DNA of 64,000 nt. It comes from Blasia pusilla. Taxonomy: Eukaryota. Position numbers and translations under genes: made by a program. Of this stretch, positions 1 to 64,000 are shown piece after piece. The notes below the pieces were generated by a model that was not told the origin of the DNA, made no database searches, and was given only the letters and a program-made list of their open reading frames with translations. Position 1 is the first letter of the stretch, and each line of letters begins with the position of its first letter. The DNA is taken from positions 16,802,001 through 16,866,000 of the forward strand of contig CM114271.1 of the NCBI GenBank assembly GCA_050084515.1, given 5' to 3'.

Positions 1-87
1 CTGTCAGTATATGTCTTGTTTCCTGAGTCGCTGCCGTTCCATTGCTTCTGTGGGATCAGTTTAATGACCTGGACTATCTGTGAAATT

Positions 88-12620: not shown

Positions 12621-12959
12621 GCGCCATATGAGATCGCGACAGATCACAATGGTTGCGTTGGTGAGCCCCATGCCTACCAAGATGGTGGAGGCAGTGGCTG
12701 GGGGCAAGACTTGAGAAGATCTACACACCAGGGGAGATCGGGAGAGACACCCTTGGACTTCTTGGGATGTTTTGCTGGTACGTGAGGAGATGATAGCCAC
12801 AACATCGAGCGTGGTTCCGGGCATTGCACGTGGAGGAGATCAGAGTTTGCAGTTGACTGCAGGAGAGCGGCCGAGTGTTGTTGTTCGAGACGGGGTTGCA
12901 CCATAGCAACCACCGATACCTGCGCCAGAGATTCCTACCATAGTTACGATGGAGACTTG

Positions 12960-14310
12960 GGAACCACATATGGGCCCTAAGTTGACAGGAGGAGAGCGGC
13001 GCCGGATACATCAGTTCCTCAGGAGTTATAGAAGCTGCTGCGTTTAGCATGGAGGATTTGGGTATGCCAAAGGGACCGAGGATCCGCATTGAGTTGTCGA
13101 GTGATACGTCGATCTTCCGATGACCCTACAGGAACAGTGATATGGAGAGGGCTCTGATTTAGAGTAGGAGCAAGGACTTGGTCGGAGCAGGACTAGTGGA
13201 GATGTCGCATGGGGAGTATGCATCTGCCAGTGTCATGCCTGCCAAGAAGGATATGCATGGCAACTGGACAGATAGGTGGATGTGTGGGGATTACCAACCT
13301 ATCAATCGGTAGACGAAGCCCGATAGGTATGCCATGCCCACTCCTGAGGAGATCTTTGATGGGATTGGTCACGCAAAGGTCTTTAGATCATTGGATTTGC
13401 GAGCTGGATACCATCAGCTGCCACCAGATTGGAGGACAGGCAGAAGACGGCATTTGGGGGCATCGATCCTCACTGGAAGGATTGTTTGTACTAGTGACGG
13501 TTCTAACCATTTGGGTTAAAGAACGCCCCGACTGAGTTTCAAAGGGTCATGGATAGGATCTTGGCTAGTCTGGATTTTGCTAGATGTTATATTGATGACA
13601 TCGTAGTCTTTAGCGCCACGATTGAGGAGCATGAGTGACATCTACAGGAGGTGTTTCGACGATTGCAATTACATGGGCTAAAGCTACATCCAGGCAAGAG
13701 CAAGTTCTTCTACAACCAGATTGAGTACTTGGGTCATACAATATACCCAGGGGGCCTTGGTGTTCAGAAAACGAAGGTAGAGGCTATCTCAAGCATTCCA
13801 CGCCCTACAGATGTGATCCGTGTTCGCGCATTCATGGGATTGGCAAACTTGTATCGGCGGTAGGTCAAGGGATTCAGTTCAATTGCAAAGCCGCTAACCT
13901 TGCTGACCAAGGTGGATCACGAGTGGCACTAGGGGGATGAGCAAGAGCGAGCATTTCAGTTGCTCAAGGACAGGTTGACGTCCGCGCCCATCTTGAGGAG
14001 ACCGATCAGGGGGTGTCCTTTCCAGTTGCACGCACATTGGAGCGGTGCTCACCCAACATGATGATGAGGGTAGAGAGTTCGTGGTGGCTTACACTAGCCG
14101 CTCAAACAAAACTGCAGAGGCAAAGCACAACTCGTATGAGGGTGAGTGCTTGGCTGCAGTGTGGACTGTTGCGCATTTCAGGTGTTACTTATTCGGCAAT
14201 CCTTACCATCATCATTGATCATCAACCAGTGAAGTGGTTGTTGGAGTCCGATAAGCTTACAAGGAAGCTTGCGAGATGGGCTCTGTTGTTGCAGGAGTTT
14301 GATTTTTAGA
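12960..14310 (+). pseudogene. pol: Gypsy-type reverse transcriptase and RNase H
   Basis: MPTPEEIFD, SLDLRAGYHQL, PFGLKNAP, ARCYIDDIVVF, LKLHPGK, YLGHTI, IDHQPVKWL, KLARWALLLQEFDF. Confidence 0.95.
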
Positions 14311-14699
14311 TGGTACATAGACCTGGGACGCTCAACCAAGATGGAGATGGGTTGAGTTGTAACCCATGCCCGAGTCAGCGAGATGCGAAAGGAGCTCGAT
14401 GGCATGGAGAGAGTGATGAGGAGTCAGTGCTAGGATGGCACGCGTTAGCCTATTTAAGCATGTTGGATATGGAGAGCCAGAGTGTGGAGACTTCGATGGC
14501 GAGGTCTAGTGGAGAGTCCTTGGATCCCGAGGCCAGTGAGGAGACGACATGTGGCCGAGATATTTATGATGATGGAGTAGTCTTGGAGTACCTTCGTACT
14601 GGCAGCGTTGCGAGCACCGTGGGTGCTAGAGAGTGGGATCGGATCCTACAGCAGGCCAGACGGTTCCGTTGGGAGGGGACACATATTTTGAGGGTTTGG

Positions 14700-15850
14700 G
14701 AGGATGGTAGGGTACGCGTAGTGCCACATCCTTTGTAGAGAGCACGACTAGTGCAGCATGCCCACGAGGAGTTGAGTCACCTTGGGGTGAAGCGGACGTA
14801 CAACTTGCTCCAGATTCAGTATTGGTGGCGAGGCATGCAGACTGATGTTCAGCAGTTTGTTGCCAGGTGCATGGTGTGTGATCAAGTCCGAGCATCCTTC
14901 AATGCTCCGACTCTACAATTGCATCCATTACCAATCATAGGCTTAGGGTATGGATGGAGTTTGGATTTTGCAAGACCTTTGCCTTTAACGGAGCGTCACA
15001 GTCGTTATGTGTTGGTGATGGTCGAGCACTTCTCGAAGTGGATCGAGTTGGTTGCATTGCTTGAGAAAGCAAGTGAGGGAGAAGCTTTCGCCTTCCTTGA
15101 CACAGTGAGGGGTCATTATGGCGCACCGGCTGAGGTGTTGAAAGACTAGGGTACAAAGTTTCGCGGTGAGTTCCAGGCCTTCTGTGATCAGGCGCTGATC
15201 GGCCACCGCACGACTTCGCGAGATCATCCTGAGGCGGATGGATTAGTGGAGAGAGTTGTGCAGACGGTGAAGAGGGGCTTACGCAAGTATGGATTTCAGA
15301 GAGGTCACCTAGGAGATTGGGACCTCCAGTTTCCGTGGTTGGCGATAACATACAGATTCAGGAGGCAGGCATCCTTAGCGTCTTTTTCACCGTACTTGCT
15401 ACTTTATGGCTGAGAGCTAGATTTACTTGCAGCCATTCGTCGAGATGCTAGTGAGGTTCTGTACCTTGATGAACCAGATGTATGGATGCGAGCATGTTCT
15501 CACAAGGCTGAGTTGTTTTGGAGAGTGATGCCCATGGCGTTCGAGAACTTGGCGATAGCGCAACATCGGGATACGTTGAGGTATGCGACTATTCGGGGTG
15601 GTGGTTATTGACCAACTATCCGGAGGTTTCATCAGGGAGATTATGTCTACTTGCAGCACACGGCACCGACGACGTTGGATGTGACTGTAGGGCGCACTAT
15701 CTTGAGAGTGCGTGACGTTTTGCCATCCGGTGTTCTCTTCCTGGAGGGACGCGATGGTATGGTATGGAAGGACCATGTGCGTAATTGTGTGCCATGTCAC
15801 CTTCCTAACATTGATGGTACAGTAGATCCAAGCTCAACAGTAGTTCCTAC
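14700..15850 (+). pseudogene. DDE integrase with HHCC zinc finger
   Basis: HAHEELSHLG...CMVCDQ zinc finger; WSLDFARPLP, VMVEHFSKWIE, D*GTKF, HPEADGLVER core motifs. Confidence 0.92.
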
Positions 15851-15857
15851 AGGCTTG

Positions 15858-16002
15858 CGTTGTATGTAGTGTGGTTCTCCTCGTGGTACGGCCACGATGC
15901 TAGTCTATGATGGATATTTGAGAGGTTGGCATATGACATGTCTGATGCCACCTCTCACTAGGGTTCCTCCGGGACGATGGATATGTCCCAGATGTACATA
16001 GA
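15858..16002 (+). pseudogene. C-terminal PHD finger (degenerate in this copy)
   Basis: RCM*CGSPRGTATMLVYDGYLRGWHMTCLMPPLTRVPPGRWICPRC; the C4HC3 pattern is nearly intact in the copy at 47775-47925. Confidence 0.85.
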
Positions 16003-16187
16003 GGAGATACTAGGTAGGTTTTGATTCCGAATTTTTCTGTGACATGGATGACAGGAAGGCGATTAACGATGGGGCCACATGTGCACCCGGCCTTTCTGCT
16101 CTTAGCGTCTTAGAGATGTATGTCGTGGTAAGTAGGGATAGATGGCTATCTGGAGTTAGAGGTACCTAACCACCAACTAGGAGGGCG

Positions 16188-16946
16188 ATTGGATATATTT
16201 TGGTACTTCTCGCCTTAGTGTATGGATGCCATGAGTTAGCATGAGATCGTGTGTGTTCGATGACAGCGATATATGTTGTGTAGCGATGTGTATGCGCACG
16301 ACAGTTGTCACGACTATTAGGATAGATCGGTGGGATCTAGCAGAGCGTCTGCACAAGTAGAGGAGGTCAAGCCCAGGAGGTCGAGGATGACCTATTGAGG
16401 TCCCGGGAAACCTGAGAGAGCAGGTTTCCCCTTCGTTTTGGCTCATTTGGAGCCATATAGAGAAACTTACTATTTCAGGCAAGTTTCCATATTGGGGATA
16501 GTTGACTTTACCCTTTTGGAAGTGGCCTTTGACCCGCTAAAGAAGGTCAAGAGCCAAGGAGGTGACCTTCGAGCATAGGTTACCGTTGAGAGGGCTTGGG
16601 AGAGGGAAGGGGGTATACCTCCAAGACAGAGAGCTTGAGAGCTCATTTTCTCTTTGTTGAACCTCTTGGCATAAGGCGGCGGAGCTATGGTTCCTTGCCA
16701 TGTGAGTGTAACCCAATCTTCTCATTAGGAGAGTGGGTTTGGTTTGACATGAGAGAGAGTGTACATCTTTGAGAGCTATGGTGTGAGATGGTGTAGAGAG
16801 AGATTGGATCTTACTTTAATTGGAGATATTTTGGTACTTCTTGTCTCTGTGTATGGATGCCATGAGTTAGCATGGGATCGTGTGTGTTTGTGTATGTCGT
16901 CAATAACAACGATGTATGTTGTGTAGCAATGTGAATGCTCACGAAA
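16188..16946 (+). repeat. 3' terminal block B1-GT-A2-B2
   Basis: B1 16188-16303, spacer GT, A2 16306-16818, B2 16819-16946; purine tract AGGAGGG just upstream of B1. Confidence 0.9.
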
Positions 16947-16951
16947 ACTGA

Positions 16952-19360
16952 TATATAGTCTCATCGATAAACCATCCTCAACTCTAGACATCCCACACAG
17001 GTCTATGTCCCCTCAACCCATACGTCCACAATGCTCTCAGCATCAACATAAAACCCAATATCCCAAATAACTTCCCAATACTCAGAATTCCCTCACACGT
17101 GGAGGGTAAGAGATCAGAATGGGTAACCTGACAATAATGTCAATATCGCTCCTCGGCAATTGCAAATCTCGACCCCAACTCGGTCATGAAGACAACTCCT
17201 CCAATAAGAAACTCGTACTCCTCTCGTAATGACGTTGCTCAAACCTCCTCAATATGTGGTGTGGATCTAGCGGTATGGTGCGGCACTGGCGGCAGGGAAC
17301 GCTTACACAACAACACGACACTCGATAATGGGATGCGGGACTCCGCGGCATACCCTCCTCAATCAACAATACACACACTATGCTCCTTAGTGAAGGAGCG
17401 GCTCCGGGATTGAGATGGTGCGGTGCAGCCACGAGCGGCACGGCGCGGAAATTGGCAGCGCGTTGCGGCTACGAGGGTGACAACACGGTACTCGATCGTC
17501 CTCGAGCGGCTACCAATCACAACATAGCAGCATGAAATGAAAACTTAAAGACCATAACTTGAGATCACCTGCCATCTCTTATTGATGACAAACTTGCGAT
17601 GACGGTGGTGGCCAAAAATAACTACGTGGTGGCAACGCAAGTCAGAGAATCAACGGTCGTCGTGGAAGACCCTCTTGTCGTGTGCCTACTCTCCTTGAAC
17701 GTTAATCTTGTTTGTTGCGGAAGCGTGCGTTCAGTAGGTCACGCTCTCAACGCTGATTTGCATCCAAACACGCACTTTGGTTAGTTGGGTCTTGGATCAA
17801 TCAGCGGGGTTACTTTCCGAGTTCTCGTCTCGGACTCTCATCAAGCTCAACCTTCCTAGTTTCGCGGTTTACAACACGGGCAAATCTCGAAAGACTTGGG
17901 ACAGACTTTCTGGTCGGTTAAGGAACCTGAAACGGCGTTTCGCGCCTAGCGGTTCCAACTGTCCGATGGACATCCAATGAGTTCCTCACCAAGACTCGCA
18001 CGAAGTGAATCTCGGGTTGGAATCCAAGTGTGGCGTACAAAGTCCACTCCCTTGGATCAGGTTTGGGTTTCGGGTTTCCGTGCCAAACTCCCGTTCCATC
18101 CCGTGCCTCTGAAACGCCGTTTGGCGCCCAAAGTGGGGTTTCGTTTCCCGAGACATCTCGGAGAAGGTCCTCCCTTACTAGTACTTCTGGGGATCTCCGG
18201 GGGCCCCCTACATTTAGGGAAAAACACCCGGGCCTCTCCAATTGGCCCTCAACCCGATTGCTCTCTCAATCGTTTTTGGCCAATATCTCAGTATGTACTT
18301 ATGCGTTTGCTGAGATCTTTAGTGCGTTGGAAGCGTCTCAAGCTCAGCTTTCCAACGCGCTCTTATTTGTCCCGAACGCATCTTGGAGCTCAACGTTATG
18401 GTCCTAAACATAGACAGATTCTCCCAAACGTTAGTCGTGTTCCAAACTGGTTCTCACCTCTTTGGCAACCAACCTCCCAAGACTCAACTCATCTCAAGTC
18501 TTGGCTCGCGTTTGGTCTAGGTTTCCTGGTCGCGACCACTAACGCATGAAACGCACAACTCTGTTCCGCGTTTCGTCTCTTAGACTTTTCCAAGAGACTC
18601 TTCCAAACGCCTCTCCAAAGCGCAAACCTCGCAGCGTGAGTTCCTTTGAGTTCTGATGTTTCGCTTGGCGCCTATTTGGTGTTGTTTGGTTATGAGGGTC
18701 GTGACACCTCCACTCCGTAATGGCGGCAATGGCAACCAAGGGTGGACAACAGCCGAACGCGGCTCTGAGCAGCGCTAGGCAACGGTGGCGGCCGACGATG
18801 GACAGTTGACCATTGATGGTGATGGTTGGCCATCAACGGCATACCGTTGATGGTGACTATGACAAGGACGGCCGCCGCCGGCACGTTGGCTGGTTTAGGG
18901 TTTGAAAATTTTTACCCTAAAAATCGCCTAGCAATGGCAGTTTTGCAAGATTAACCACGACGTTTTGCTCGCAAATCTAGATTGTGCACCGTCTATTGCA
19001 GGACTATAGTTCCGCCGCCTCATGCCAAGAGGTTCAACAAAGAGAGAATGAGCTCTCAAGCTCTCTCTCCTTAAGGTATATCCCTCCCCTCTCCCAAGCT
19101 CTCTCCATGATAACCTATGCTCCCAAGTCACCTCCTTGGCTCTAGACCTAATTTAGAAGGTCAAGAACTACTTAACAAAAATAGAAAGTCGATCATATAT
19201 TCAAAACGGTACTTATTTAAAATGGTAAGTTCCTCAATATGATTCCAAATGAGCCGAAATGAAGGGGAAACCTACTCTCTCAAGTTTTTCGGAGCCTCAA
19301 TATATCATCCTCAACCTACGGAATGTGTTCTCCACTACTCGCGAAGGCACTATACTAGAC
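16952..19360 (-). mobile_element. 5' part (partial A repeat and 5' UTR) of an older, internally deleted copy of the Gypsy-DNMT family
   Basis: ~16960-17675 and 18707-19000 match the reverse complement of ~7795-8760; ~19003-19360 match the reverse complement of A. Confidence 0.85.
17676..18706. mobile_element. Solo LTR of a second family (~1 kb)
   Basis: TGTCG...GTGACA termini; flanks CCTCT/CCTCC; the host 5' UTR continues on both sides; homologous to 45175-46080 and 61821-62453. Confidence 0.85.
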
Positions 19361-46843: not shown

Positions 46844-49230
46844 TGTCATGCGCATACACATCGCTGTCACCGAACACACACATAAACACACACGATCCCA
46901 TGCTAACTCATGGCATCCAAACAACGAGATGAGGAGTCCTAAATATCTCCAATTAAATTAAGTAGATCTCACATCAATGTATCACACCAAACTCTCCATG
47001 GTGTGCACTCTCTCTCATGTCAAAGCAAACCCACTCTCCTAATGAGAGGCTTGGCTTACACACACAAGGCAAACAAGACCATAACACTGCCGCCTCATGC
47101 CAAGAGGTTCAACAAAGAGAGAATGAGCTCTCAAGCTCTCTCTCTTGGAGGTATATCCCCTTCCCTCTCCCGAGCTCTCTCGTCGGTAAGCTATGCTCGT
47201 AGGTCACCTTCTTGGATCTTGACATACTGTAGCGGGTCAAGAGCCACTTCCCAAAGTAGAAAGTCAACTATACTCCAAATGGAAACTTAACCGAAATAGT
47301 AAGTTTCTCTATATGGCTCCAAATGAACCGTAACGAAGGAAAAACTTGCTCTCTTAAGTTACTCGTGGTCCAACAGGTGATCCTCGACCTCCTGAGGCTG
47401 CCCTCCAGTATCTCCAAAGACGCTCTACAAGATCTCTCCGATCTATCCTAAAAGACATGACAACCGTCGTACCCATACACATAGCTACACAACATACATT
47501 GTTGTCACCGAACACACACATAAATACACACGATCCCATGCTAACTCATGGCATCCAAACAACGAGACGAGGAATACCAAAATATCTCCAATCGTTCCCC
47601 CCTAGATGATGGTTAGGTCCCTCTAACTCCAGATAGCCATATATCCCTACCTACCATGACATACATCTCTCGGACGCTAAGAGCAAAAAGTCCGGGTGCT
47701 CATGTGGCCCCATCGTTAGTCGCCTTCTTATCATCCTGGTCACAGACACAAGTTAGAATCTAGAACTACCTATTCTATGTATATCTGGGACACATCCATT
47801 GTCCCTGAAGAACACTAGTGAGAGGTGGCGTCAGACATGCCATATGCCATCCTCTTGGACATCCATCACAAACTAGCATAGTGGCTGCACCACGGGCGAA
47901 ATCGCACAACATACATCGGAAGCGTGCACAAACTACTACTAAGCTTGGATCAACTGTATCTTCAATGTTAGGAAGGTGATAGGGCGCATAGTTACGCACA
48001 TGATCCTCCCAAACCATACCATCGCGTCCCTCCAATATATAAGAGAACACCACATGGTAAAACCTCACGCACTCTCAAGATGGTGCGCCTTGCAGTCCCA
48101 TCCAACGTCGTGGGTGCCGTCTGTTGCAAGTTGACATAGTCTCCTTGATGAAATTTCCGGATAGAAGGTCGATAACCACCTCCTCGAATACTTGCATACC
48201 TCAACGTATCCTGATTTTGTGCAATCGCCAAGTTCTCAAACACCATGGGCATCACTCTCCGAAATAACTCATCCCTTTGAGAACATGCTCGCATCCATAC
48301 ATTAGGGTCATCAAGGTTCAACACAAACATCTCGACGAATGGCCGCAGGTAAATATGGCTCTCAGTCATAAAGTAGCAAGTACGGTGAGAAAGACGCTAA
48401 GGATACCTACTTGCTGAATGTGTATCCCATCGCCAACCACGATAATTTGAGGTCCGAATCTCCTAGGTGACCTCTCTGCAAGCCAAACTTGCGTAATCCT
48501 CTCTTCAACTTCTGCACAACCCTCTCCGCTAGTCCATCCGTCTTAGGATGATCTCGCAAAGTGGTGTAGTGTTCAATCAGCGCTTGATCACACAAGGCCT
48601 CAAATTAAACTCCCCGCGAAACTCCGTACCTTGGTCTGTCAACACCTCAAGTGGTAAGCTCTAATGACTCAACACTCAATCCAGGAAGGCATACGCTACT
48701 TCCTCACTCGCTTTGTCAAGAAATGCAACCAAGTCTATCCACTTCGAGAAATGCTCGACCATCACCAACACATAACAACTATGGCGCTCTGTCAAAGATA
48801 ACGGTCTTGCAAAATCCAAACTCCATCTATAACCTAAACCCATGATCAAAAGTGGATGCAATTGTGGAGTCGGAGCATGGAACAATGCTCAGACCCGATC
48901 ATAAACCATGCACCTAGTAACAAACTGCTGAATGTTAGTCTACATGCCTTGCCATCATAACTGTATCTAGAGCAAGCCATATGTCCGCTTCACTCCAAAA
49001 TGACCCAACTTCTTGTGGGCATGACGCACCAAATGTGCTCTCTGTGAAGGACGAGGCACTACACGTACTCTACCATCCTCCCAAACTCGCAACACATGTA
49101 TCCCCTCACACTAGAATTGTCTAGTTTGCTGTAGGATCCGATCCCTCTCTTTAGCACCCACTATGCTCGCGATGCTGCCAGTATGCATGTACTCCAAGAC
49201 TACTCCATCGTCATGAATATCTCGACCACT
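46844..49230 (-). mobile_element. 3' part of a Gypsy-DNMT copy: integrase, PHD finger, B1-A2-B2
   Basis: Reverse complement of ~14550-16946; PHD RCMLCDFARGAATMLVCDGCPRGWHMACLTPPLTSVLQGQWMCPR at 47775-47925; B copies at ~46844-46952 and ~47465-47592. Confidence 0.9.
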
Positions 49231-52200
49231 TGTTATCACCGTCATAATCATCGTCAACGGTCCGCCGTCGACGGTCAACCGTCACCGTCAATGGTCAACA
49301 ATCACCTTCACCGGTCAACCGTCACCATCAGCGGTCAACCATCACCGTCAAAGGTCCACCGTCCGTTGTCCACCCTTTGGTTGCCATTGCCGCCATTATG
49401 GAGTGGAGGGTCTTCCACGACGTTCGTTGATTCTCTGACTTGCGTCGCCACCACGTACTTTGTTTTGGCCGCCACCGTCATCAAAGTTTCGTCGTCATCC
49501 AGTGATGGCAGATGACCTCTAGTTATGGTGTTTGAGTTTTCATTTCATGCTGCTATGTTGTGATTGGTAGCCACTCGACGACGATCGAGTACCGTGCCGT
49601 GACGCCCGTAGCCGCAACGCACCGCCGATTGCCGCGCCGTGCCGCTCGTGGCCGCACCGCACCGTCTCGATTGCGGAGCCGCAACATCATTATGGAGTAG
49701 ATTATGGGTTTATTGTTGATTGAAGAGGGTATGCCGCCGAGTGCCGCATCCACCATCGAGGGCCATGCTGTTTGTAGCCGTTCCGTGCCGCCTGCAACGG
49801 CGCACCGTTCCGCAGGAACGGCACTGTCTATCGAGGAGTTTTGAGCAGCGTCAGTACGGGAGGAGTATGATTTGCTGATTGGAGGAGTTGTCTCCATGAC
49901 CGAGTTGGGGTTGAGATTTGCAGTTGCTGAGGAGCGACATCGACATGTGTTCAAGTTACCCATTCTGGTCCTTTACCCTGCACGTATGAGGGATTCTGGG
50001 ATTTGGGTAGTTTATTTGGGGATATTGGCTGTGTGGATGCTGAGAGCATCATTTATGTATGTGATTTAGGGGACATAGACATGTGTGGGATGTCCGGAGT
50101 TGAGGGTAGGTTGTCGATGAGATGATAACCCGGTCGATTTGCCGCACCATGCCGCCTATTGCCGCACGCTACATGTCTAGGGGAGGGAGAGTGTAGATCG
50201 AGTGCCGCATGTTTGGGATGAGTGATTGAGGGATTACTTGCAAGGCAAGAGTGATCGGGTGAGAAGGGCACAAGGGTCATCACGGCATCCGTTCGGGACT
50301 TTGAGAGGCAAGGTGGTGAACCCGAGAGTAGCTCTAGAGGTTTTACGTGGAGTGCGTGAGGTTCCCAAGGGTCTTCACTTCAGGGACCACCTTGACCTCC
50401 TTCTGTGTCATCCTCAGACGAGGGGGAGGGTGTAGAGGAATTTGCGAGCACATCGCCACACATTGTGAGTGGTCCTACCAATTGGGCGTACGAGATGGAC
50501 GACCGAGGTAGAGGACCGCGTAGATTTTCAGGTGCAGTAGGTACGATTGAGTTGCACGATTTCATAGCAGAGTTTAGGAGGTAGTGCGACTCCCAGCGGG
50601 CCAGGAACTCTAGAGAGTTCAACCCGTTTACAGCATGGAACGGTATGTTCCAGCATTTAGAGGGGGCACCCATGGACGATGAACATGAGTTTTCCCACAT
50701 ATATGCCCAGGAGATTGAGGCATTGCGACTCTACTACGACCCACACTATGTGTCATGGACGGAGCCGTTCCCAGATGAGGAAGAGGAGTCAAGAGAGGCT
50801 ACTTCCTCTTCCACCAGTGATGTTTTAGGAGGGGTCTCTCGCACTGGAGCAGTTGCACCTTCTAGTCGGGTTCGTCCCAGGTTCAACCCCGTGGTTGAGT
50901 TCTTTGCTGAGTTGAGGGCGAGCTACCAAGGGGTACGGACGGAAAAGTTGCGTAGCATCCACAACTTCCAGAGGCGCCCGGGTGAGAGTTTACGTGAGGC
51001 TTACACTCACTTGCGCCGGTTGATCAACGTCACTCAGGGGGTGACAGAGGCTCAGGCTATCCAGTCATGGTACGTGATGCTGGACCAGACCCTACGGCCA
51101 TAGGTGCGGGAAGGGGTGCTTCTTATGAACACCTCCCCTACGTTGAGAAATGTTTTTAGGACCTCCGAGAACATTGAGCGCAACATGGCGGAGGAGAGCG
51201 TAGCCACCATGGGTTCTGGGCGGGAGCAGTCGCGATTGGCTGTACCATATGTGCAGCAATGTGGACTCCGAGATAGGTCGACAATGGCACCATGAGCTCA
51301 GGGAGGATACCGGAAGGCCGTGCCACAAAGACCTACGCCTTCTAATGCGGCTCAGTAGGAGCCATCTACTATTACTTGTTGGTCATGTGGTGGAGCCCAT
51401 CATCAACGCGATTGCACTCGTTAGGGTCATGGACGTGTGCCTCAGCATGGAGGAGGAGATGGTGCTGCACCAGGAGGTTATCAGTGTGACTATTTTCAGA
51501 GGTATGGTCAAACACGCGCCAGGTGTTTCAGTTTACATCCTGAGTTACGTCCGGACCGAGGGCCGGTGAGGGCACCAGAGCGAGTAGTCGGTCCGGATGG
51601 GCCTAGAGATCGTGTACCAGGTGGTCCCGTTGGGGGACGAGGAGCTGGAGTTGCCCGACAGGGTGGTGGAGCTGCTCGTGGAGGAGGTAGGGTACCACCA
51701 CCTAGACGCGTCGAGGGAGACGCCGGACGTGAGGCTGGTATGGCTGCTCAGATTCAGCAGCTATAGGAGCAGATTGCCGCTATGGCATTGAGGTTACCCG
51801 ATGCCGGATCCGTGGCATCGACATCATATGGAGCAGCCAGAGATCTGGAGGATCCTGGTTGGATGTGCAGGGTTGCCCAGATGGAGGCCGTCGCTGTTGT
51901 GATGCATGGAGCAGCCGCAGAGTTGGATCCACATCTAGGGGAAGCCAGAAAATAGACTAGGCTTCCTCAGTATTTCACGTTGTCCGAAGCGATGAGGACC
52001 CCATCGATGGGTCCTCATCAAAGTTCCTGGAGAGGTGGTGATGTTGTTGGTGTGTAGGCACGGAGGGTGATGGGAGAAGCGAGTGCGACAACCCCTATTG
52101 TTGATGCTCAAGAGGGGCATGTGTCGAGCACGTTGTTGGGGGCGGCCACCGTTGTGTGCCGCACTCCTTTATTTTCTGCTTCCGATGTTATTGGGGGGTA

Positions 52201-55200
52201 TGCCCGCTGAGGCTTTTTGGCTGGCCGCTTCACTATGTGAACGCGGAGTTGGAGTTCTTGCATCACGTTCAGAGGTGATTGCAGAGGAGATGATGGACCT
52301 GCCCTTGGAGCGGATGCTCGGGCCGTCCACGTCAGATTCATGGCAGGCTGCGGCTGCTAGAATGGCGGAGATGCCCGCTAGACCCGCGATAGAGCGTGCC
52401 ATGGCTTCTCCTGGTGTTGTGTTGCTGGATAACCGAGGAGAAGTCTTCCAGTTAGTGAGTCATGGAGGTAGAGCTTTTAGTCCGCAGCGTGTCTTGTTGG
52501 ATTCAGGAGCGCAACCCCTGATGTTGGGGAAAGCATCATTCAGAGGATTGGGCTTGACGAGAGCCAATGTGGAGCGTTTTCCATTCCGGATACAGACATC
52601 CTTGGGTGGAGCAAGTACCACACAGTATCTCACCCGACAAGAGGTCATGGTGAGGATTCGCCCGGAACATCCTACTGATGAGTTTGTGGTGCGCGCAAGG
52701 CAATAGTGACTGATGCAGAGTCCTACGACGTCTTGGTTGGTGGAGCAGTGTTATACCCGATGGGGTTTTCCTCGGATTACTGGGAGGAGTCAGCGTCCTA
52801 CAGACCAAGATGGCAGTCAGGTGATGGGCGCCTTAGCTCATTACCAGTTCGTGAACTTGCAATGATCGAGCAACGGCCAAGAGAGATGGCGACCTTAGCA
52901 ACATTTAGCAGTGCCATCACTTGGCCTAGTGATTTGATTGAGGGACATGTCCATGCAGAGGATACTCCCGTTCCTGACATTTCTATGGAGAGGAGTGTTA
53001 TGGTAGGTGCATCATTTCGTGGAGGAGAGGTGCCGATGTGGGGCTCGACTGAGGAGCTTCGACGATTGGCAGATGAGCACGTGCAGACCGCGTGGAGCGA
53101 GGCGTGACGGGTCTGAGGAATCCGAGGTAGTAGGGAGTGCTACGATGATACCATTGGATACCACACCCATTGTGTGGTGTATCCCGAAGGAGGGTATTCG
53201 AGTGTTAGATCTCTTTGGAGGGATTAGCACGGGGTTAGCTGCTGTTTTGCAGGCATGAGTGCGAGTACAGCAGTACCTGTATGTGGAGAGTGATGATGTT
53301 GCGAGGCGCGTCTCACTACGACATGTGGCGCAGTTATGCCAACGTTTTCCCGACTTATTGTCTGCGTCTGTAGTACAGGGGTATCACAGTTCCCTACCGA
53401 GGGATAGGGAACTCTATTTTGTTGTTGGGGGCGCAAGACTTAGAGCGGGTAGGGATCATTGATTTGGTCATTTCCAGTTGGCCATGTTAGGGCCAATCGA
53501 GTGCTGGATGAGGCAGCGGGTTAGTTGACACTCGGTCCAGGTTGTTTTGGGAGATGTTGAGGGTCTTACGGCAGTTGTAGGAGCACCGGTCTCATTCTCT
53601 AGCCTACATTCTTGGGAATGTGCCGATCTTAGGAGACTCCTAGTCACGGGTGGTGACGAGTGCTGATCAGGTGCATGCCTGGATTGGCCCAACACTATTC
53701 TTGGATGCGGCAAGTGTAGGTTCTAGAGCCCATCGCCCGCGTCTATGGTGGACCAACTTGGTGCCCCATACGGTGTTACGGAGGGCGTATGCGAGAGTGG
53801 AGCGCCCCTCCCATTTGTTAGTGGATTCCATTCTGGATCCTGGTCATCGATCACAGGCAGTGAGGCACGATGATAAAACCACCATTGACTGTGGTCAACA
53901 GGGTAGGCAGGCCGCGGGCAGCCTTGCCCACGTTTGTGAGTTTTCCCGCTTCCTATGCATACAAGGAGGCCGGTCCTGGCTTGGTTTGGGATGACCAGGT
54001 TCAGCGGTTGGTGGAGCCCAACGCCGACGAGAGAGAGCAAGCGATGGGATTTCCCACAAGAGTGACGGCAGTCCCGTCAGTGTTAGAGGCATCACGACGC
54101 CATGTCTTGGGTCAGGCGATGGACCTGAACTGCTTGACATGGATCCTCAACTTGGGCGTGGCTGATCAACGTCATATGAGATTGTGACAGATCACAACGG
54201 TTGCGTTGGTGAGCCCAATGCCTACCGCGACGGTGGAGGCAATGGTTGGGGACGAGACCTGAAGAGATCTACGCACCAGGGCAGATCGGGAGAGACACCC
54301 TTGGACTTCTTGGGATGTTTTGTAGGTACGCCAGGAGATGATAGCCACAGCATCGAGCTTGGTTTTGGGCACTGCACGTGGAGGAGATCAGAGTTTGTAG
54401 TTGGCTGGAGGAGAGCGGCCGAGTGATGTTGTTCGAGACGAGGTTGCAACATAGCAACTACCGATACTCGTGTCGAAGAGTCCTACCGTAGTTATGATGG
54501 ATTCTTGGGAGCCAGATATGGGCCCTAAGTTGACAAGAGGAGAGCGGCGCCAAATACATTAGTTCCTCAAGAGTTATAGGAGCTGCTTTGCATTTCGCAT
54601 GGAGGATTTGGGTACGCTGAAGGGATCAAGGATCCGCATTGAGTTGTCGAGTGATACGCCGATCTTCCGACGACCCTACACGTACAGTGATATGGAGAAG
54701 GCTCTGATTCAGAGTAGGAGCGAGGACTAGTGGAGATGTTGCATGGGGAGTATGCATCTACCACTGTCATGCCCGCCAAGAAGGATGTGCGTGGCAACAA
54801 GACGGATAGGCGGATGTGTGGGGATTATCGACCTATCAATCGGCAGACGAAGTCCGATAGGTATGCCATGCCCACTCCTGAGGAGATCTTTGATGCGATT
54901 GGTCACGCAAAGGTCTTTAGTTCATTAGATTTGCGAGCTAGATACCATCAGCTGCCTATCAGATTGGAGGACAGGCAGAAGACGGCATTTTGGGGCATCG
55001 ATCCTCGCGGGAAGGATTGTTTGTACCTGTGGCGGTTCTTACCATTTGGGTTAAAGAACGTCCCGGTTGAGTTTCAGAGGGTCATGGATAGGATCTTGGC
55101 TGGTCTGGATTTTGCTAGGTGTTATATTGATGACATCGTAGTCTTTAGCGCCACGATTGAGGAGCATGAGTGACATCTAGAGGAGGTGTTTCGACGATTG

Positions 55201-56020
55201 CAATTACATGGGCTGAAGCTACATCCAGGCAAGTGCAAGTTCTTCTACGACCAGATTGAGAACTTGGGTCATACGATATACCCAGAGGGCCTGGATGTTC
55301 AGCAGACGAAGGTAGAGGCTATGTCACGCATTCCACGCCCTACAGATGTGAGCCGTGTTCGCGCATTCATGCGATTGGCGAACTTCTATCGGCGATACGT
55401 CAAGGGATTCAGTTCGATTGCAAAGCGGCTGACCTTGCTGACCAAGGTGGATCAGGAGTGGCACTAGGGGGATGAGCACGAGCCAGCATTTCAGTTGCTC
55501 AAGGACAGTTTGACGTCCGCGCCCATCTTGAGGAGATCGATGAGGGGGCGTCCTTTCCAGTTGCACACAGATTGGAGCATGTTGGGGCTTGGAGCGGTGC
55601 TCACCCAGCATGATGATGAGGGTACAGAGTTCGTGGTGGCTTACGCTAGCCACTCAAACAACGCTGCAGAGGCGAAGTACAGCTCGTATGAGGATGAGTG
55701 CTTGGCTACGGTGTGGGCTGTCGCGCATTTTAGGTGTTACTTATTTGGAAACCCCTTTACCATCATCACTGATCATCAACCACTCAAGTGGTTGATGGAG
55801 TCCGACAAGCTTACAGGGAAGCTTGCGAGATGGGCTCTGTTGTTGCAGGAGTATGATTTTCAGGTGGTACATAGACCTGGGACGCTCAACCAGGATGCAG
55901 ATGGGTTGAGTCATAACCCATGCCCGAGTCAGCGAGATACGACTGGAGCTCGATGGCATGGAGAGAGGGATGAGGAGTTGGTGCCAAGATGACACGCGTC
56001 AGCCTATTTAGGCATGTTGG
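49231..56020 (+). mobile_element. Internal part of a Gypsy-DNMT copy: 5' UTR, gag, PR, DNMT (~53170-54180), RT, RNase H; both ends missing
   Basis: Colinear with ~7920-14465; IRVLDLFGGISTG, WPC*G, RAHRPRLWWTNL, EREQAMGFP, ARCYIDDIVVF, LHTDWS, TDHQPLKWL. Confidence 0.92.
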
Positions 56021-56389
56021 TCCACACATTAGGATCTTGACAGATTACTCCAGGTAGATCCGACTCCCGACCATAAAACAAGAGCGTGAGAAAGACGCTA
56101 AGAATTCTTGGCTCCTGAATCTGTATCCCATTGCCAACCACGGTAACTCAATGTCCCAATCTCCTAAGTGACCTCTCTGCAAGCCATACTTGTGTAAACC
56201 TTTCTTCACCGTTTGCACAAGCCTCTCCGCTAGTCCGTTCGCCTTATGATGATCTTGTGAAGAGGTGCGACGGTCGAATAGTGCATGATCACACAAGGCC
56301 TCAAACTCCCCATAAAACTCAATACTCTAGTCTGTCAACACCTCAACTGGTATGCCATAATTACTCCGCAGTCGATCTAGGAAGACATA

Positions 56390-56954
56390 TCTCATGCCTA
56401 TTAGGATAGATTGACGAGATCTAGAAGAGTACCTTCAGAGATATTAGAGGATAGCCTCAAGAGGTTGAGGATGTCCTGCTGAGGGCACGGGAAATTTGAG
56501 AGAGCAGTTTTCCCCTTTTTTTTGGCTCATTTGGAGTCATATTGAGGAATTTACTATTTCGAGTAAGTTGCCATTTTTTACTTTCCACTTTTGGAAGTGA
56601 CCCTTGATCCGCTATAGGAGGTCAAGAGCCAAAGAGGTGACCTACGAGCATAGGTTACTGTAGAGAGAGATTTGGAGAGGGAAGGGGCTATACCTCTAAA
56701 AGAGAGCTTGAGAGCTAATTCTTTGTTGAACCTCTTGGCATGAGGCGACGGAGCTATGGTCCTCCTTGACTTGTATGTGTAACCCAAGCCTCTCATGAGG
56801 AGACTGGGTTTGGTTTAGGGTTGAGAGAGAGAGATATTTTTGTACTTCTCATCTCATTGTGTGGATTCCATGAGCTAGCATGGGATTGTATGTGTTTGTG
56901 TGTATGGTAGATGACAACGATGAATGTTGTGCAGCGATGTGTATGCGCACGACA
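56390..56954 (+). mobile_element. Isolated A-B unit (solo-LTR equivalent) of the Gypsy-DNMT family
   Basis: T(C)TCATGCCTATTAGGATAG...GTGTATGCGCACGACA; matches 16306-16946 with a deletion at the A/B boundary; no TSD found. Confidence 0.82.
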
Positions 56955-59515
56955 TAATCCATATCAAAAAATTAAGGTTCAAGCTGTCCAAAGCTTGACC
57001 AAAGACATGACGTCATGATGCCTATGATAGTTTCGGTATTTTTGTCACTCCTAAGGGAAATCCCATCACTCGCTCTCATTCATCGGCGTTCATAGTTTGA
57101 GACATAGCTCCACCAACGACTATGTATGGTCATCCCAAACCAAGCCAAGACCAACCTTCTTGTATGTATAGGAAGCAGGAAACTCACAAAAGTGGGAAAG
57201 GTTGACCGTGGCATGCTAATCCTGTTGACAACAATCAATGGAGGTCAATCATCATACCTCACTGCCTGTGATCGACGACCCACATCCATAATAGAATCCA
57301 CCAAGAAATGGGAGGGGCGATCCACTCTCGCATATGCCTTCTACTAAACCTCGTTTGGCACCAAGTTGGTCTACCATAGACCTAGGCAATGTGCTCATAA
57401 ACCTACACTCACCACATCCATAAACACTGTTGGGCCAATCCATGCACACAATTGATGAGCACTTATCACTACCCGTGACCTCGAATTGCCAAAAATCAGA
57501 ATGTTCTTCAGGATGTAAGCTAAAGAACAGGATTGTTGCTTGTGCAGATATTGCAAGATCCTCATCATCTCCCAAAACAACCTCGAACGAGTGTGAGCCA
57601 ACCTACTACCTCGTCCAACACTTGACAGGCCCTGATATGGCTAACCAAAAATGACCAAATCAATGGTCCCTACTCTTTCCAAGTCTTGTGTCCCCAATAA
57701 TGAAATGTCTGTCGGTAGAGAACTTTAATACCCCTATATGGCAGACGTAGATAAGAATTCCGGAAAACTTAGGCATAACTCTGCCACATATCCTAGTGAA
57801 ATGCACCTTAAAATCTCATCAATCTTAGGATACAAATATTTCTGCACGTGTACTCCTCCCTGCAAAATAACAACCAACCCAGTGCTGATCCCTCTAAAGA
57901 GATCCAACGCTTGAATACTCTCCTCAATGAGGCACCACACAATGGGTATGGTGTCCAAGGATGTCACTGTAAAACTCCTAGCTATCTCGGGTTCCTTTGA
58001 GCCATCACGCTCTACGCCATCTGCACGTGCTCATGGACCAAGTGTCGAAACTCCCCACTCACGCCCCATACGGCATCTCTCCTCCACAGAATAATGCGAC
58101 TAACATGAAACTCCTCTCCGTGGAAGTGTCAAGCATGGGCGTGTCCTTTGCATGGACATACCCTTCAATCAAATCATCAAGCCAAGTGATGGCGCTACTA
58201 AATGTTGCTAACATCGTCATATCTCCTAGCCATCGCTCAATCATTCCACGTGTGAATCCAACAGATAATGAACCAAGTCGCACATCCCCTGGTTGCCATT
58301 CTGGTCTCTAGGAGGCTAACTCCTGCCAGTAATCCAAGGAAAATCCCATCGGGTACAAGATTGCTCCTCCATCGAAGACATCATAGGACTTGGCATCGGT
58401 CACTATTTCCTTGGCTTGCACCATAGACTCATCAGACGAATGGCATGGGCGAATCCTCACCACGACCTCATGGCAGGTAAGAAACTGCATCGTACTCGCT
58501 CCATCCAAGGATATCTATATCATGAATGGAAAACCCTCCACATCGGCCCTTGTCATGCTCAATCTTGTAAATGCTGAATCTAACAAGACACACTGCGGAC
58601 AAAACACTCTACCTCTTGGAATTACCAAATGGAATACCTCTTTTGGGTTATCTAGCGAAACAACTCCTTGGGAAACCATGGCATGCTCTATCACAAGTCT
58701 TGCAAGAATCTCCGCCATCCTAGGAGTGCCAACCTACCATGAATCTGAGGTGGACGGCCCAAGCATAGGCTCTAGGGGCATCTCTATCACCTCCTCTACA
58801 ATCACCTCTGAACGTTACATAGAGATATCAACTCCACGCTCATAGAGCGTAGCAGCTAGACAAAAAACCTTGGTGAGCGTGTCTGCCTACATCATAACAT
58901 CAAAAGAAAAACCATGGGGTGCGGTACATCGTAATGGCCTCCCGTAACAATGTACTCGACATATGCTCCACTTGAGAATTTGCAATAGGGGTCATTATAC
59001 TCACTTCTCCCCTTGCCCTCTTTGCATGCATACCAAGAACATCGACTCTTTGGGAACTCTGATCAGGATCCATCGATGGGGTCCTCATCACCTTGAACAA
59101 TGTGGACAATTGAAGAAGCCTCATTTTTTTCCTGGATTCTCCTCATTGTGGATCCAACTTTGCAGCGGATCCAACTCTACAATCGCTCCTTGCGTAACTA
59201 CGGCAGCTGCCTCCATTTTTGCAACCCCGCACATCCAACCAAGATCCTCCATGTCTCTGGCTGCTCCATATGACGTCGATGCCACTCATCCAGCATCGGG
59301 TAACTTCAATGCCAAAGCGGCAATCAAACATCTCTCAACGTAGGTGAGGTGCGCATAAGAAGTATCGCATTCCTCACCTGTTTCCGTAGGTCTTGTTCCA
59401 ACATCACGTACCATGCTTGGATAGCTTGGGCCTCTATCATCCCCGAAGTGACACTTATCAACCAATGCAAGCAAGTGAATTCCTCACACAAACTCTCACT
59501 CATGCACCTATGGAA

Positions 59516-59757
59516 CAAGGTTGCACGAGAACGGACATGCCCAACCCGCACACAAGCCCACCCTAAGCCCGTCGCGTAGACCGGGGCTCATGGAGCTCAC
59601 ACCTGTTGCGTGGCTCGCGGCAAGCCCTCAACTAGGCCGACCCTAGTTCGGGCTCTGGGTCAGCTCGGATGCGGGCCGCGGGTACCCGCGCCCGCACGGA
59701 TATATCCATCCATAGGAAGGACATAAGTCCGTGGGACTTTTTCTGTGTGCAACCCTT
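59516..59757. mobile_element. hAT-type MITE with 8-bp TSD, inserted in gag
   Basis: CAAGGTTGCAC...GTGCAACCCTT; CTATGGAA at 59508-59515 and 59758-59765. Confidence 0.9.
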
Positions 59758-61820
59758 CTATGGAAGTCGTTGATGCTCCGCAACTTCTCAGTCCGTACCC
59801 CTTGGTAGTTCCTTTGCAACTCCACAAAGAACTCAATCACGGGGTTGAACCTGTGACGAACCCAACAGGACGATGTAGTTGCTTCATTATGATTCACCCC
59901 TCCTAGCACATCACTAGTACCAAAAGAAGTAGCCTCTCTTAGGTTGTCCTCGTCATCTGGAGATGGCTCAATCTATTACACATAATGTGGGTCATAGTTG
60001 AGTCTCCAAGTTATAATCTCATGGGTATACCTCTAGGAAAACTCATCATAATCATCCATGGGTGCCCCCTCTAAGTGTTGGAACATGTCATTCCATGTTG
60101 TAAATGGGTCAAACTCTCTAGAGTTCATAGCCTGTTGTGAATCACACTAACTCCTAAACTCCGTAATGAAGTCATGCAACTCTATCGTGTCTACCACTCT
60201 CGGAAACCTAAGAGATCCTCTACCCTGGTCGTCCATCTCGTAGGTACGCCCAAGCGGTAGGGTTACTTAATGGGTGTGGTGAATCACTAAAAAACTCCTC
60301 GACGTCCTCCCCCTCGTCTGAGGAAAATATAGAAGGAGGTCGAGATGGTCCTTCACATAGAGACCCTCGAAACCTTGGGCCACTTCGCGTAAATCCTCTA
60401 GAGCTACTCTAAGATCCACCACCTTTCCTCCCAAAGTCCTGGAAAGACGTTGTAATGACCCTCGAGTACCTCTCATGCGATCACTCTCAATCTCATCAGT
60501 AATCCCTCAATCACTCAACCCAAAAGTACGGAACTTAATCTATACTCCCTCTCACTTGACGTGTATTGTGCGGCAACAGGCGGCGTGGTACAACAAATCA
60601 CTATTATCATATCATCTCATCGACAGAACATAACCTCAACTCTAGACATCCCACACAAGTCTATGTCCCCAAAACCCATACATCAATGATGCTTTCAGCA
60701 TTTGCACAAGATCCAATATCCCAGATAACTGCCCAATACCTAGAGTTTGCTCACACGTGTAGGGAAAAATATCAGAATGGATAACTTGAACAAATTGCAA
60801 ATTGTAATAATTGTGTTCAATAATTGCAAATTTTGACCCCAAGTTGGTTATGAAGAAACACTCCTCCAATTAGCAAGTTGTACTTCCCTGATACTGATGA
60901 TGCTTAAATCTCCTCCATGTGCGGTGTGGATCCAACGGTATTGGCGGCACGGAACGGCTACAAATGACACGGCACTTGGTGATGAGATGCGACACACCTT
61001 GGCATACCCTCCTCTATTAATTAGTAATAGGTTTGGTTTGACATAAGAGAGAATGCACACCATGGAGAGCTTGGTTTTGTGCTCAATTATGCTAATGCCT
61101 TTTTTGGACCTGCTCGTCTCTACCGCGTTCCATCAACGACGGATACTCTAGCCGCGTCGGGAGCCGCCGACTGCCCTCGGATGTGTTCCCTCCTTACTAC
61201 TATTTGCGGCTGCTCATGCGACTTCCGGCCGTGAGTACCGCCTGGCCTGTCTAGGCAATATTTTTTTGGATCCGGCCCCGTGCCTCTTGGCCCACCTTGA
61301 GCTGCTGCCAGCCGCTATTCCCCATTGGCGAGATCACGGCTGCGCCGCTCTGGGCCTTGCACTACTATTTTTTTGGGGGAAGTCAACCGTCCTTGCCGCT
61401 ACCGTAAATAAGGCCGCGACCAACGGCTCCAACCGGTTGTGTCTTCCTACGCTGCTATTGTTGGCGCACCAATCCTACTAACTTTGCCCGCCTGTGACTT
61501 CGAGCCCTTGCGGTGCTTGGAAGCTACCACGTAGCTACGCAACACCATTCGCGATTGCTAGTCGAGTTATAACCAATAGGCGTCGTGACTACGTAGCCAA
61601 TAGCTACTATGCACGTCCAGCCGGGCTGCATTGCATAGCCGTCGACCTTCCATCCGACTCTGTCCGGCTCTGTACGACGGCGCCAATGACCGTCTTCTGC
61701 TATTTGCTACCCCGTTTGAAATTGGACGGTGAGACTTGGGGGCCATTGATTTTTATTTTGAGCCGCCGTCACACTGTTCTTGCCGTACTCATCCTGGAAA
61801 TTTTCTTCATCGACCAGTTA

Positions 61821-62453: not shown

Positions 62454-64000
62454 TGTCGTACGCATACACATTGCTCCACAACATACATCGCTGTCACCGA
62501 GCACACACACAACCACGCATGATCCCATGCTAACTCATGGCATTCAAACAACGAGACAAGAAGTACCAAAATATTTCCAATAAAATAAGATCAAATCTCT
62601 CTCTCAACACTATAGTTCTCACATGTGTGCACTCTCACATGTGTCTCTCAATATCAAACCGAACCCACTCTGCTAATGAGAGGCTTGGGTTACACACACA
62701 AGACAAGCAAGACCATAACTCCGCCGCCTCATGCCAAGCGGTTCAACAAAAAAAGAATGAGCTCTTAAGCTCTCTCTCCTTGAGGTATACCCCTCCCCTC
62801 TCCCAAGCTCTCTCCATGGTAACCTATGCTCCCAAGTCACCTCCTTGGCTCTTGACCTGATGTAGGAGGTCAAGGGCTAATAACCAAAAATAGAAAGTTG
62901 ATCACATACTCAAAATGGTACTTACCTAAAATAGTAAGTTCCTCAATATGGCTCCAAATGAGCCGAAACGAAGGGAAAACCTACTCTCTCAAGTTTCCCG
63001 ATGCCTCGATAGGTCATCCTCAACCTACTGAGCCTGTCCTCCGCTGCTCATGAAGGCGCTTTACTAGATCCCACCGATCTATCCTAAGAGACGTGATAGT
63101 TATCGTGCGCATACACATCGCTATACAACATACATTGCTATCATCGAACACACACACAACCACGCATGATCCCATGCTAACTCATGGCATCCAGACAACG
63201 AGACAAGAAGTACCAAAATATCTCCAATCGCCCCCCTAGCTGGTGGTTAGGTCCCTCTAACTCCAGATAGCCATCTATCCCTACCTATCATGACATACAT
63301 CTCTCGGACGCTAAGAGCAAGAAGGCCGGGTGGTCATGTGGCCCCATTGTTAGTCGCCTTCTTATCATCCATGTCATAGACACAAGTCAGAATGTAGAAC
63401 TACCTACTCTATGTACATATGTGACACATCCATCGTCCTTGAGGAACCCTAGTGAGAGGTGGCGTCAAACATGCCATATGCCATCCTCACGAACACCCAT
63501 CAAAGACTAGCATAGTGGCTGCACCACGAGCGGAACCACACAACATACATCGCAAGCCTACACAAACTATTGCTAAGCTCGGATCAACTGTACCGTCAAT
63601 GTTTGGAAGATGACATGGCGCACAGTTACGCACATGGTCCTTCCAAACCATACCATCGTGTCCCTCCAATAAGAGAACACTGGATGGCAAAACCTCATGC
63701 ACTCTCAAGATGGTGCGCCCTGCAGTCACAACCAACGTCGTGGATGCCATCTGCTGCAAGTAGATATAATATCCGTGATGAAACCTCCAGATAGTAGGTC
63801 GATAACCACCTCCACGAATAGTCGCATACCTCAACGTATCCTGATGTTGCACAATCGCCAAGTTTTCAAACGCCATGGGCATCACTCTCCAAAACAACTC
63901 AGCCCTCTCAAAATATGCTCACATCCATACATTAGGGTCATCAAGGTTCAACACCTCACCAGTATCTCGACGAATGGTCGTAGGTAAATTTGGCTCTCGG
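62454..64000 (-). mobile_element. 3' end of another Gypsy-DNMT copy (integrase C-terminus, PHD, B1-A2-B2), runs off the window
   Basis: B copies at ~62454-62581 and ~63102-63228; RCMLCGSARGAATMLVFDGC PHD start; purine tract AGGGGGG upstream of B1. Confidence 0.9.

Follow-up and report, generated by a model that had tools for sequence, protein, structure and literature searches.

A PHD finger closes the integrase of a DNMT3-bearing Ty3/Gypsy-type retrotransposon in Blasia pusilla and is separated from the methylase by a conserved in-frame stop codon

What does a PHD finger do at the C-terminus of a retrotransposon integrase, and does it work together with a DNA methyltransferase encoded by the same element? 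The question is raised by a 64,000-nucleotide stretch of the Blasia pusilla genome (GCA_050084515.1, contig CM114271.1, positions 16,802,001 to 16,866,000; the window), in which a PHD finger lies on the minus strand at 47781-47915. The original prediction for this locus held that the finger stands in place of a chromodomain and shares one polyprotein with a DNMT3-like methylase, as a chromatin reader joined to a writer. We find that the finger is the normal last domain of the integrase of a decayed Ty3/Gypsy-type retrotransposon of about 10.2 kb with split terminal repeats, and that a conserved in-frame stop codon separates it from the methylase. Our preferred reading, to which we assign a probability of roughly 55%, is that a leaky stop would yield a particle-borne methylase on one side and a PHD-integrase that would tether to nucleosomes on the other, as two functions rather than a coupled unit of the ADD-DNMT3 kind.

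The finger reads CMLC-x11-CDGC-x4-HMAC-x14-CPRY, with the spacing that had been predicted, and is the only C4HC3 pattern match in the six frames of the window. The Pfam profile PF00628 matches it with an E value of 3.8e-10 and 40.1 bits, above the curated cut-off of 24 bits. Two further fingers, expected near 15858-16002 and at about 63410-63555, were located at 15861-15998 (plus strand, copy 1) and 63412-63549 (minus strand, copy 3), where PF00628 scored 25.3 bits on the stop-free part only and 22.4 bits on a 25-residue piece, respectively. All three are damaged: at 47781-47915 the eighth ligand is changed from Cys to Tyr and a frameshift lies just upstream, the copy 1 finger has one stop and two Cys-to-Tyr changes, and the copy 3 finger has one stop and a Cys-to-Phe change. 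Integrase sequence precedes the PHD in each. The copy that carries the finger at 47781-47915 (46844-49233; the focal copy) begins past the RNase H and contains neither methylase nor reverse transcriptase (RT).

We searched the genome (390 Mb, 26 contigs) with the PHD region and the methylase, which returned 9,578 and 9,756 first-look candidates, respectively; these are not copy numbers, and 150 of each were scored. Two natural genomic copies hold the integrase core (rve) and PHD in a single stop-free frame, of 407 and 390 residues, confirming that the two are in frame. The predicted structure of a stop-free copy shows a zinc finger, core, long helix and SH3-like barrel with the PHD last, and the integrase fold matches those of the PFV (foamy virus) and Ty3 integrases. 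PF00628 is present in 119 of the best 120 listed integrase homologs (of 300 passing), which range from Volvocales and Haematococcus to Coleochaete, and the PHD-integrase fusion is a fixed feature across chlorophytes, Coleochaete, Sphagnum and the B. pusilla genome. The nearest named integrase relatives are from Sphagnum, with a support of 99 (Shimodaira-Hasegawa-like approximate likelihood-ratio test, the only support computed) in a quick tree rooted at the midpoint. One clade member, P0178, is labelled as an uncultured cyanobacterium protein and probably derives from an alga or plant whose DNA ended up in a metagenome bin. Chromodomain families were found neither in the frames of the window nor among the 120 listed homologs, and none was found at E<=1 behind the PHD in 15 long-tailed relatives. 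The finger does stand where a chromodomain would, after the SH3-like integrase tail; the substitution holds for position only.

Purifying selection acted on the PHD during the active life of the family. In ten copies taken without selection on the PHD, its ratio of nonsynonymous to synonymous substitution rates (dN/dS) is 0.40 (0.21-0.67), compared with 0.82-0.96 in neutral simulations and 0.82 in the adjacent linker; the integrase core gives 0.30 against a simulated neutral range of 0.51-0.62. Six of the eight zinc-ligand columns are invariant among 63 homologs and the other two are kept in 62 and 59 of them; the latter count is for the eighth ligand, which is Cys in 31 of 39 family copies.

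Which chromatin mark might such a finger read? Its PDB relatives (the best 60 of 62 listed) are led by CHD4, PHF12, KDM5 PHD1, KMT2D, AIRE, PHF21A, DPF3, BAZ2 and UHRF1, most of which we take to be readers of unmodified H3; ING, BPTF and TAF3 are not among these 60. Two residues before the His ligand, presumably the site of the Trp of the H3K4me3 aromatic cage, Gly is found in 38 of 39 copies and 113 of 117 homologs (16 of 133 proteins were off-pattern and excluded from these columns). We mapped the remaining contacts onto KDM5A following 10.1101/715474, which in part also supplies the assignment of most listed structures to the unmodified-H3 class (for this and the other papers cited, we draw on the passages covered). 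The equivalents of D312, W335 and L309, and with them the Ala1 pocket and the Arg2-binding Asp, are kept in all 39 copies, and P331 in 33 of 39. Thus, the PHD is predicted to read the H3 N-terminus and to be blind to H3K4me3, although its binding is possibly weak. A complex prediction for the family PHD (63 residues, no alignment) with residues 2-33 of the host H3 tail gave a score of 0.31, the mark being 0.34.

A PHD that does not read H3K4me3 would be expected to bias insertion modestly away from active promoters. In an active Chlamydomonas element with a PHD in its Gag-Pol, Gypsy-7a_cRei, intergenic insertions are 2.6-fold more frequent than chance (PMC9940879). In B. pusilla, 16 of 55 3' flanks lie in other repeats, compared with 83 of 584 random pieces (locus-bootstrap P of about 0.04), a weak excess with most flanks taken from one contig. 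Several points count against the histone-reader interpretation. The excess could reflect selection after insertion, and 3' flanks lie within the family's own sequence no more often than random pieces do (7 of 62 versus 76 of 660). In addition, the acids that contact K4 are lost, with Ala at the equivalents of KDM5A D292 and E305 and D315 also gone, and the family PHD is basic, with a net charge of +3 to +7 where long-tailed relatives have a median of -4, so that binding to H3 may be weak or indifferent to K4.

The lost acids, the positive charge and the lack of excess into the family's own copies would suit a PHD kept for a non-histone role, either as a basic zinc module in contact with DNA or with the surface of the nucleosome, or as a stabilizer of the integration complex. 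We consider this unlikely, given that the Ala1 pocket and the Arg2-binding Asp persist throughout the family (the Asp also in 112 of 117 homologs), that 71 of 117 homologs have an acid immediately ahead of the first Cys, and that the nearest solved relatives are readers of the H3 tail.

The element to which the PHD belongs encodes Gag, protease and the DNMT3-like domain, followed by an in-frame TAG and then RT, RNase H, integrase and PHD. This is the protease-RT-RNase H-integrase order of Ty3/Gypsy elements with a DDE integrase, of whose catalytic residues we scored two: the first Asp is kept in 35 of 35 copies and the Glu in 34 of 36. The family makes up 13% of the genome as sampled on twenty 10-kb stretches at round coordinates. 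Every copy examined is broken, and none is intact.

The termini depart from the two equal long terminal repeats (LTRs) and primer-binding site of Ty3/Gypsy elements. Instead, a repeat A of about 513 bp and a repeat B of about 128 bp are arranged as A-coding-B-A-B; both were found in 16 of 24 stretches, only B in 3, only A in 2 and neither in 3, and metagenome loci L167, L188 and L221 have the same split ends. By eye, no tRNA primer site is evident after the first A, where the sequence is purine-rich and has no TGG start. The element begins with TG and ends with CA, and among 15 copies with both ends (16 were examined) the 4-bp target duplication is exact in 12 and matches at three of four positions in 2, indicating that the DDE integrase carried out the insertion. 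The two A repeats of a copy are 88.9-98.4% identical (14 copies), and the median identity between copies is 92.8%. Since these values fit decay after insertion, we dropped mobilization of defective copies in trans as an explanation. The internal B-A junction joins the right and left ends of the element two bases apart (window positions 16294-16315 and 47453-47475) and has 259 exact matches in the genome. Integration of circles cut at either B-A junction was likewise discarded, with none of 25 junction loci permuted. Two loci, L019 and L138, show end variants, one with 135 bp of A before the first B and one with an extra A-B unit, which are possible traces of template switching.

That the PHD-bearing element also carries a DNMT3-like domain is borne out by 17 of 20 PHD-led loci (picked from the 150 PHD matches by longest open frame), in which the methylase lies upstream on the same strand. 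The best PDB matches of the family methylase are DNMT3A, DNMT3B and DNMT3C, with DNMT3A (E 5e-8) ahead of M.HhaI and DRM2. Its motifs follow the canonical, unrearranged DNMT3-like order, and the catalytic Cys is kept in 29 of 29 copies and the Glu in 28 of 29. No DAM domain was found in the B. pusilla family. Two findings weigh against an active methylase: its dN/dS, 0.55 (0.47-0.70) in copies not chosen on the methylase, overlaps the neutral range of 0.59-0.75, and the methylase of KnitGypsy-Dnmt3, a probably related element of the alga Klebsormidium nitens, showed no activity in yeast, a result that its authors call inconclusive (PMC5890265).

The nearest named methylase relatives are from Marchantia (55-65%). 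Half of the methylase homologs (13 of 26) are Gag-PR-DNMT proteins that end 286-397 residues past the catalytic motif, compared with 314 in the B. pusilla family, and the Marchantia proteins Mp_8g17980 and Mp_4g09160 are among them. These two and four further Marchantia models (Mp_Vg00370, Mp_Vg00540, Mp_5g06330 and Mp_5g06860) resemble the first open reading frame (ORF1), Gag-PR-DNMT, of such elements; they are annotated as hypothetical, CCHC or DNA methyltransferase, and several members of the cluster lie on the V chromosome. In a chlorophyte-type sister group (P0044, P0059, P0097, P0120, P0204 and L204:1368-11405), the order is RT-RH-DNMT-INT-PHD, and the proteins bear an extra tail of about 300 residues that hints weakly at a Tudor-like domain (PF21743, E 0.007-0.25) and at a methyltransferase-like one. 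In L204, too, a TAG precedes RT, but it lacks the CARYYA context. The literature passages covered do not mention cytosine methylases in Gypsy elements of chlorophytes.

Between methylase and RT, one codon is a stop in 27 of 28 copies, whereas the next commonest stop, a product of decay, occurs in 8 of 34. A CARYYA hexamer directly follows in 25 of 28 copies, and in the first 100 of 1,657 exact genomic contexts the codon is TAG in 95, TAA in 2 and a sense codon in 3. No stop is shared among copies in Gag, protease, methylase or the interval from RT to PHD; frequent frameshift bins near the ends of the reference frames appear, from the sequences, to be private to the copies concerned. Metagenome locus L155 has the same arrangement, with a single TAG in CARYYA context between frames of 1369 residues (Gag-PR-DNMT) and 1047 residues (RT-PHD). 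CAR YYA is the readthrough signal of tobacco mosaic virus (TMV; PMC2754532), and a ratio of Gag to Pol of about 20:1 is described as a rule (PMC2194720). Not all relatives have this stop. In six sequences known as proteins only (P0199, of 2811 residues, P0025, P0027, P0131, P0223 and P0231), the methylase continues into RT; loci L187-L189 have 843-999 nt free of stops ahead of RT; and the codon is the first in-frame stop of this interval in 6 of 30 RT-bearing metagenome loci, most of them decayed, with CAACCC in place of strict CARYYA in 5 of those 6.

RNA from three runs of one study under the same species label, with no DNA or host-gene control, shows that the family is still transcribed, from one strand. 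Each run placed 4,903-5,404 reads on an 8.4-kb internal stretch at 86% likeness, and the reads are strongly one-stranded, in the sense direction if the library is of the usual type. Few of them are 99% alike, which suggests that many copies contribute. Depth climbs toward the PHD end, from about 10-75 on the Gag-methylase side to about 70-240 on the RT-PHD side. This gradient would fit a true stop, with RT-integrase-PHD translated from a shorter RNA of its own or after re-initiation, in which case methylase and PHD would never be part of the same chain, and there is precedent in Candida Tca2, whose in-frame stop with a readthrough-like context had a promoter at the junction (PMC2194720). However, depth changes gradually, which uneven likeness or 3' bias may explain, neither a well-supported splice junction nor an abrupt start is listed near the stop, and the frame and CAR(YY) context are shared across distant relatives. 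We regard a true stop as improbable to about the same degree as the non-histone role; it concerns expression only and would leave the role of the PHD unchanged.

In the model that we favor, the TAG would be read through at low frequency by way of the CARYYA signal, so that Gag-PR-DNMT would be made in excess and RT-INT-PHD confined to a minor product. Cleavage by the protease would then leave the PHD on the integrase and the methylase as a separate, abundant particle protein, which most likely acts on the element's own cDNA. The PHD would tether the integration complex to nucleosomes via the free H3 N-terminus, using the Ala1 pocket and the Arg2-binding Asp. With a conserved and probably leaky stop between them, PHD and methylase most likely do different jobs.

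The original prediction joined reader and writer in one polyprotein and drew a parallel to animal DNMT3, which is guided by its ADD domain. On this view, the PHD would guide the methylase in cis, and one protein would both pick and mark chromatin. Both domains do sit on one element, an uncleaved readthrough product would contain both, a single open frame is present in some relatives, and the chlorophyte-type sisters (proteins of Pleodorina, Volvox and Haematococcus among them) have the methylase downstream of the stop, with RNase H before it and integrase after it. An uninterrupted polyprotein is not supported for the family, in which the conserved TAG divides the halves, nor for the focal copy, which has no methylase. 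Guidance in cis also fits poorly with this stop, with the roughly 1,000 residues of RT, RNase H and integrase that intervene together with an encoded protease, and with the varying position of the methylase among clades, set against a PHD that is always at the integrase tail; we consider it distinctly improbable. That the PHD is a captured host exon and functionless passenger is largely refuted and scarcely credible, for although no more than 22 of 39 copies (3 of the 10 unbiased copies) retain all eight ligands without a stop, ligand loss fits decay after insertion, dN/dS lies below neutral and the fusion is fixed across the green lineages named above.

How much of this is new? Gypsy elements with a PHD and with a DNMT3 have each been published; we found no published account of the stop, of how the ends are built or of the occurrence in land plants. 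The B. pusilla family is probably kin to KnitGypsy-Dnmt3, a Gypsy element with DNMT3 and DIRS-like A-coding-B-A-B repeats (de Mendoza et al. 2018, PMC5890265), with which it shares the Gypsy domain set, an unrearranged DNMT3-like domain and the repeat arrangement. The two differ in that KnitGypsy-Dnmt3 has its DNMT in the Pol ORF (PMC5890265), while the B. pusilla methylase, in the same frame, precedes the TAG before RT; in the passages covered, that paper makes no mention of a PHD, readthrough or target duplications for KnitGypsy-Dnmt3. Moreover, KnitGypsy-Dnmt3 resides in an alga and the B. pusilla family in a land plant, at about 13% of sampled DNA. No K. nitens proteins were returned in our integrase or methylase homolog searches. 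Methylation of cDNA has already been proposed for DIRS-borne DNMT3 (PMC5890265), and transposon methylases are stated to be absent from land plants such as tracheophytes (PMC6338049).

Retrotransposon PHDs have been called widespread (PMC6673714; 10.1101/2021.11.30.470311). Gypsy-7a_cRei (PMC9940879) resembles the present family in an accessory PHD proposed to steer insertion; it differs in that no methylase is listed and the legend, in the passages covered, gives the PHD before INT, whereas the B. pusilla PHD is the integrase terminus. The PHD alone is an ordinary domain in a known setting. REM1 carries a PHD and a chromodomain in a separate antisense ORF. Both REM1 and CR1-like long interspersed nuclear elements (LINEs) are cited as PHD-bearing (PMC6673714, PMC9940879). 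Chromoviruses (REXdb clades, PMC6317226) share a chromatin-reader domain at the integrase C-terminus, but the B. pusilla family has no chromodomain, split repeats and no evident tRNA primer site. Unlike DIRS and Ngaro elements, it has a DDE integrase and 4-bp duplications, and no tyrosine recombinase matched in 144 stop-free frames scanned. The family operates in the manner of a chromovirus that uses another reader; we assign it neither to the chromoviruses nor to the DIRS elements.

EpiLTRs (10.64898/2026.05.21.726589) are likewise LTR elements with a reader and DNA methyltransferases, for which the term epigenetic toolkit is in print, but they combine a chromodomain, DAM and a DNMT4-related DNMT where the B. 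pusilla family has a PHD and a DNMT3-like domain. As in murine leukemia virus (MuLV), SIRE1, Tca2 and TMV, an in-frame stop would set the amount of downstream protein, with a CAR-YYA signal (PMC2194720, PMC2754532); here the stop comes after protease and methylase, placing an enzyme on the abundant side. The NCGN target preference of Phygy (PMC6317226) is found in 0 of 14 duplications. The family is not described in the passages covered of PMC12344493, PMC6317226 and PMC11982613, and a literature search, with subscription journals, Repbase, Dfam and theses outside its scope, turned up nothing on a PHD paired with DNMT3, on the leaky stop or on members in bryophytes.

The copies and fragments of the family in the window are collected in Table 1. 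Copy 1 is full-length; its A repeats are 89% identical, and no clean target duplication was found at its ends. We dropped the fragment at 56986-61020 as the 5' half of the focal copy, their likeness being 74% and 83%, respectively, with RT and RNase H missing.

Table 1. Copies of the retrotransposon family and their parts in the window
Feature	Coordinates	Strand	Basis
PHD finger, focal copy (C4-H-C3, eighth ligand Cys>Tyr)	47781..47915	-	PF00628, pattern, translation
Focal copy, 5'-truncated: RNaseH-integrase tether, integrase, PHD, B-A-B end	46844..49233	-	83% identity to 7776-10150 of a 10,181-bp copy
rve match in focal copy	within 48679-48888	-	profile search
Repeat B, first copy, after purine-rich tract	47466..47592	-	
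Repeat A, 3' copy, begins TGTCA	46954..47462	-	
Repeat B, terminal copy, ends GACA = element 3' end	46844..46953	-	
Copy 1, full-length, decayed: A-gag-PR-DNMT-(TAG)-RT-RH-INT-PHD-B-A-B	6825..16946	+	
DNMT3-like cytosine methyltransferase core, copy 1, broken	11732..12443	+	PF00145 E 3.6e-11 on 11732-12103
Conserved in-frame TAG with CARYYA-type context, methylase/RT boundary, copy 1	12904..12912	+	
RT and RNase H, copy 1; frame shared with integrase and PHD; decay stops	13197..14306	+	
Integrase zinc finger and core, copy 1	14739..15410	+	PF17921 E 1.6e-16; rve E 0.0016
PHD, copy 1, one stop, two ligands lost	15861..15998	+	
Copy 3, 3' part: integrase tail, PHD 63412-63549 (one stop), B-A-B end; runs past window edge	62454..64000	-	
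Copy 4: gag-PR-DNMT-TAG (54452-54454)-RT-RH, A-B end, without PHD	49302..56954	+	
Inverted integrase piece inside copy 4	56019-56389		
gag-PR-DNMT fragment, same kind, more diverged (74%)	56986..61020	-	
Another copy, 5' fragment with repeat A and leader, split by unrelated repeat	16959..19359	-	

Other features surround these copies. A second repeat family, 69-87% alike and without a Pfam match, occurs at 17898-18706, 45302-46078 and 61821-62444, and the 3' end of copy 3 lies some 10 bp from the start of one member. Host genes include a plant-type subtilase in several frames (28063-32576, minus strand; I9, S8 and fn3_6) and a short-chain dehydrogenase in a single 281-residue open frame (41360-42202, minus strand). 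Matches to zf-C17orf113 and DUF4371 at 35864-36801 (plus strand) are remnants of what we take to be a hAT-like DNA transposon. A Copia-type RT fragment lies at 5950-6219 (minus strand), and C-terminal pieces of ribosomal protein L2 lie in two frames at 1-347 (plus strand).

The function of retrotransposon-borne cytosine methylases is an open question (PMC5890265), and PHD-directed integration has been proposed, not shown, in the literature covered. The stop bears on both, as it predicts abundant methylase in the particle and scarce PHD-integrase at the target. Some bryophyte genes annotated as "DNA methyltransferase" appear to be ORF1s of transposons, and the Gag-PR-DNMT models of Marchantia bring both questions to a plant with genetics and chromatin maps. 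More tentatively, and with clearly less confidence than in the model for the B. pusilla family itself, a Gypsy clade of the green lineage that includes Marchantia may combine split-repeat replication without a tRNA primer site, a methylase that, made at capsid level through a leaky amber stop, pre-marks the cDNA ahead of insertion, and PHD-guided landing in H3K4-unmethylated chromatin. If so, this would be a retroelement that marks itself in advance and selects chromatin in which that mark persists; the methylomes of hosts in which the clade reached about a tenth of the genome could then bear the imprint of its abundant methylase.

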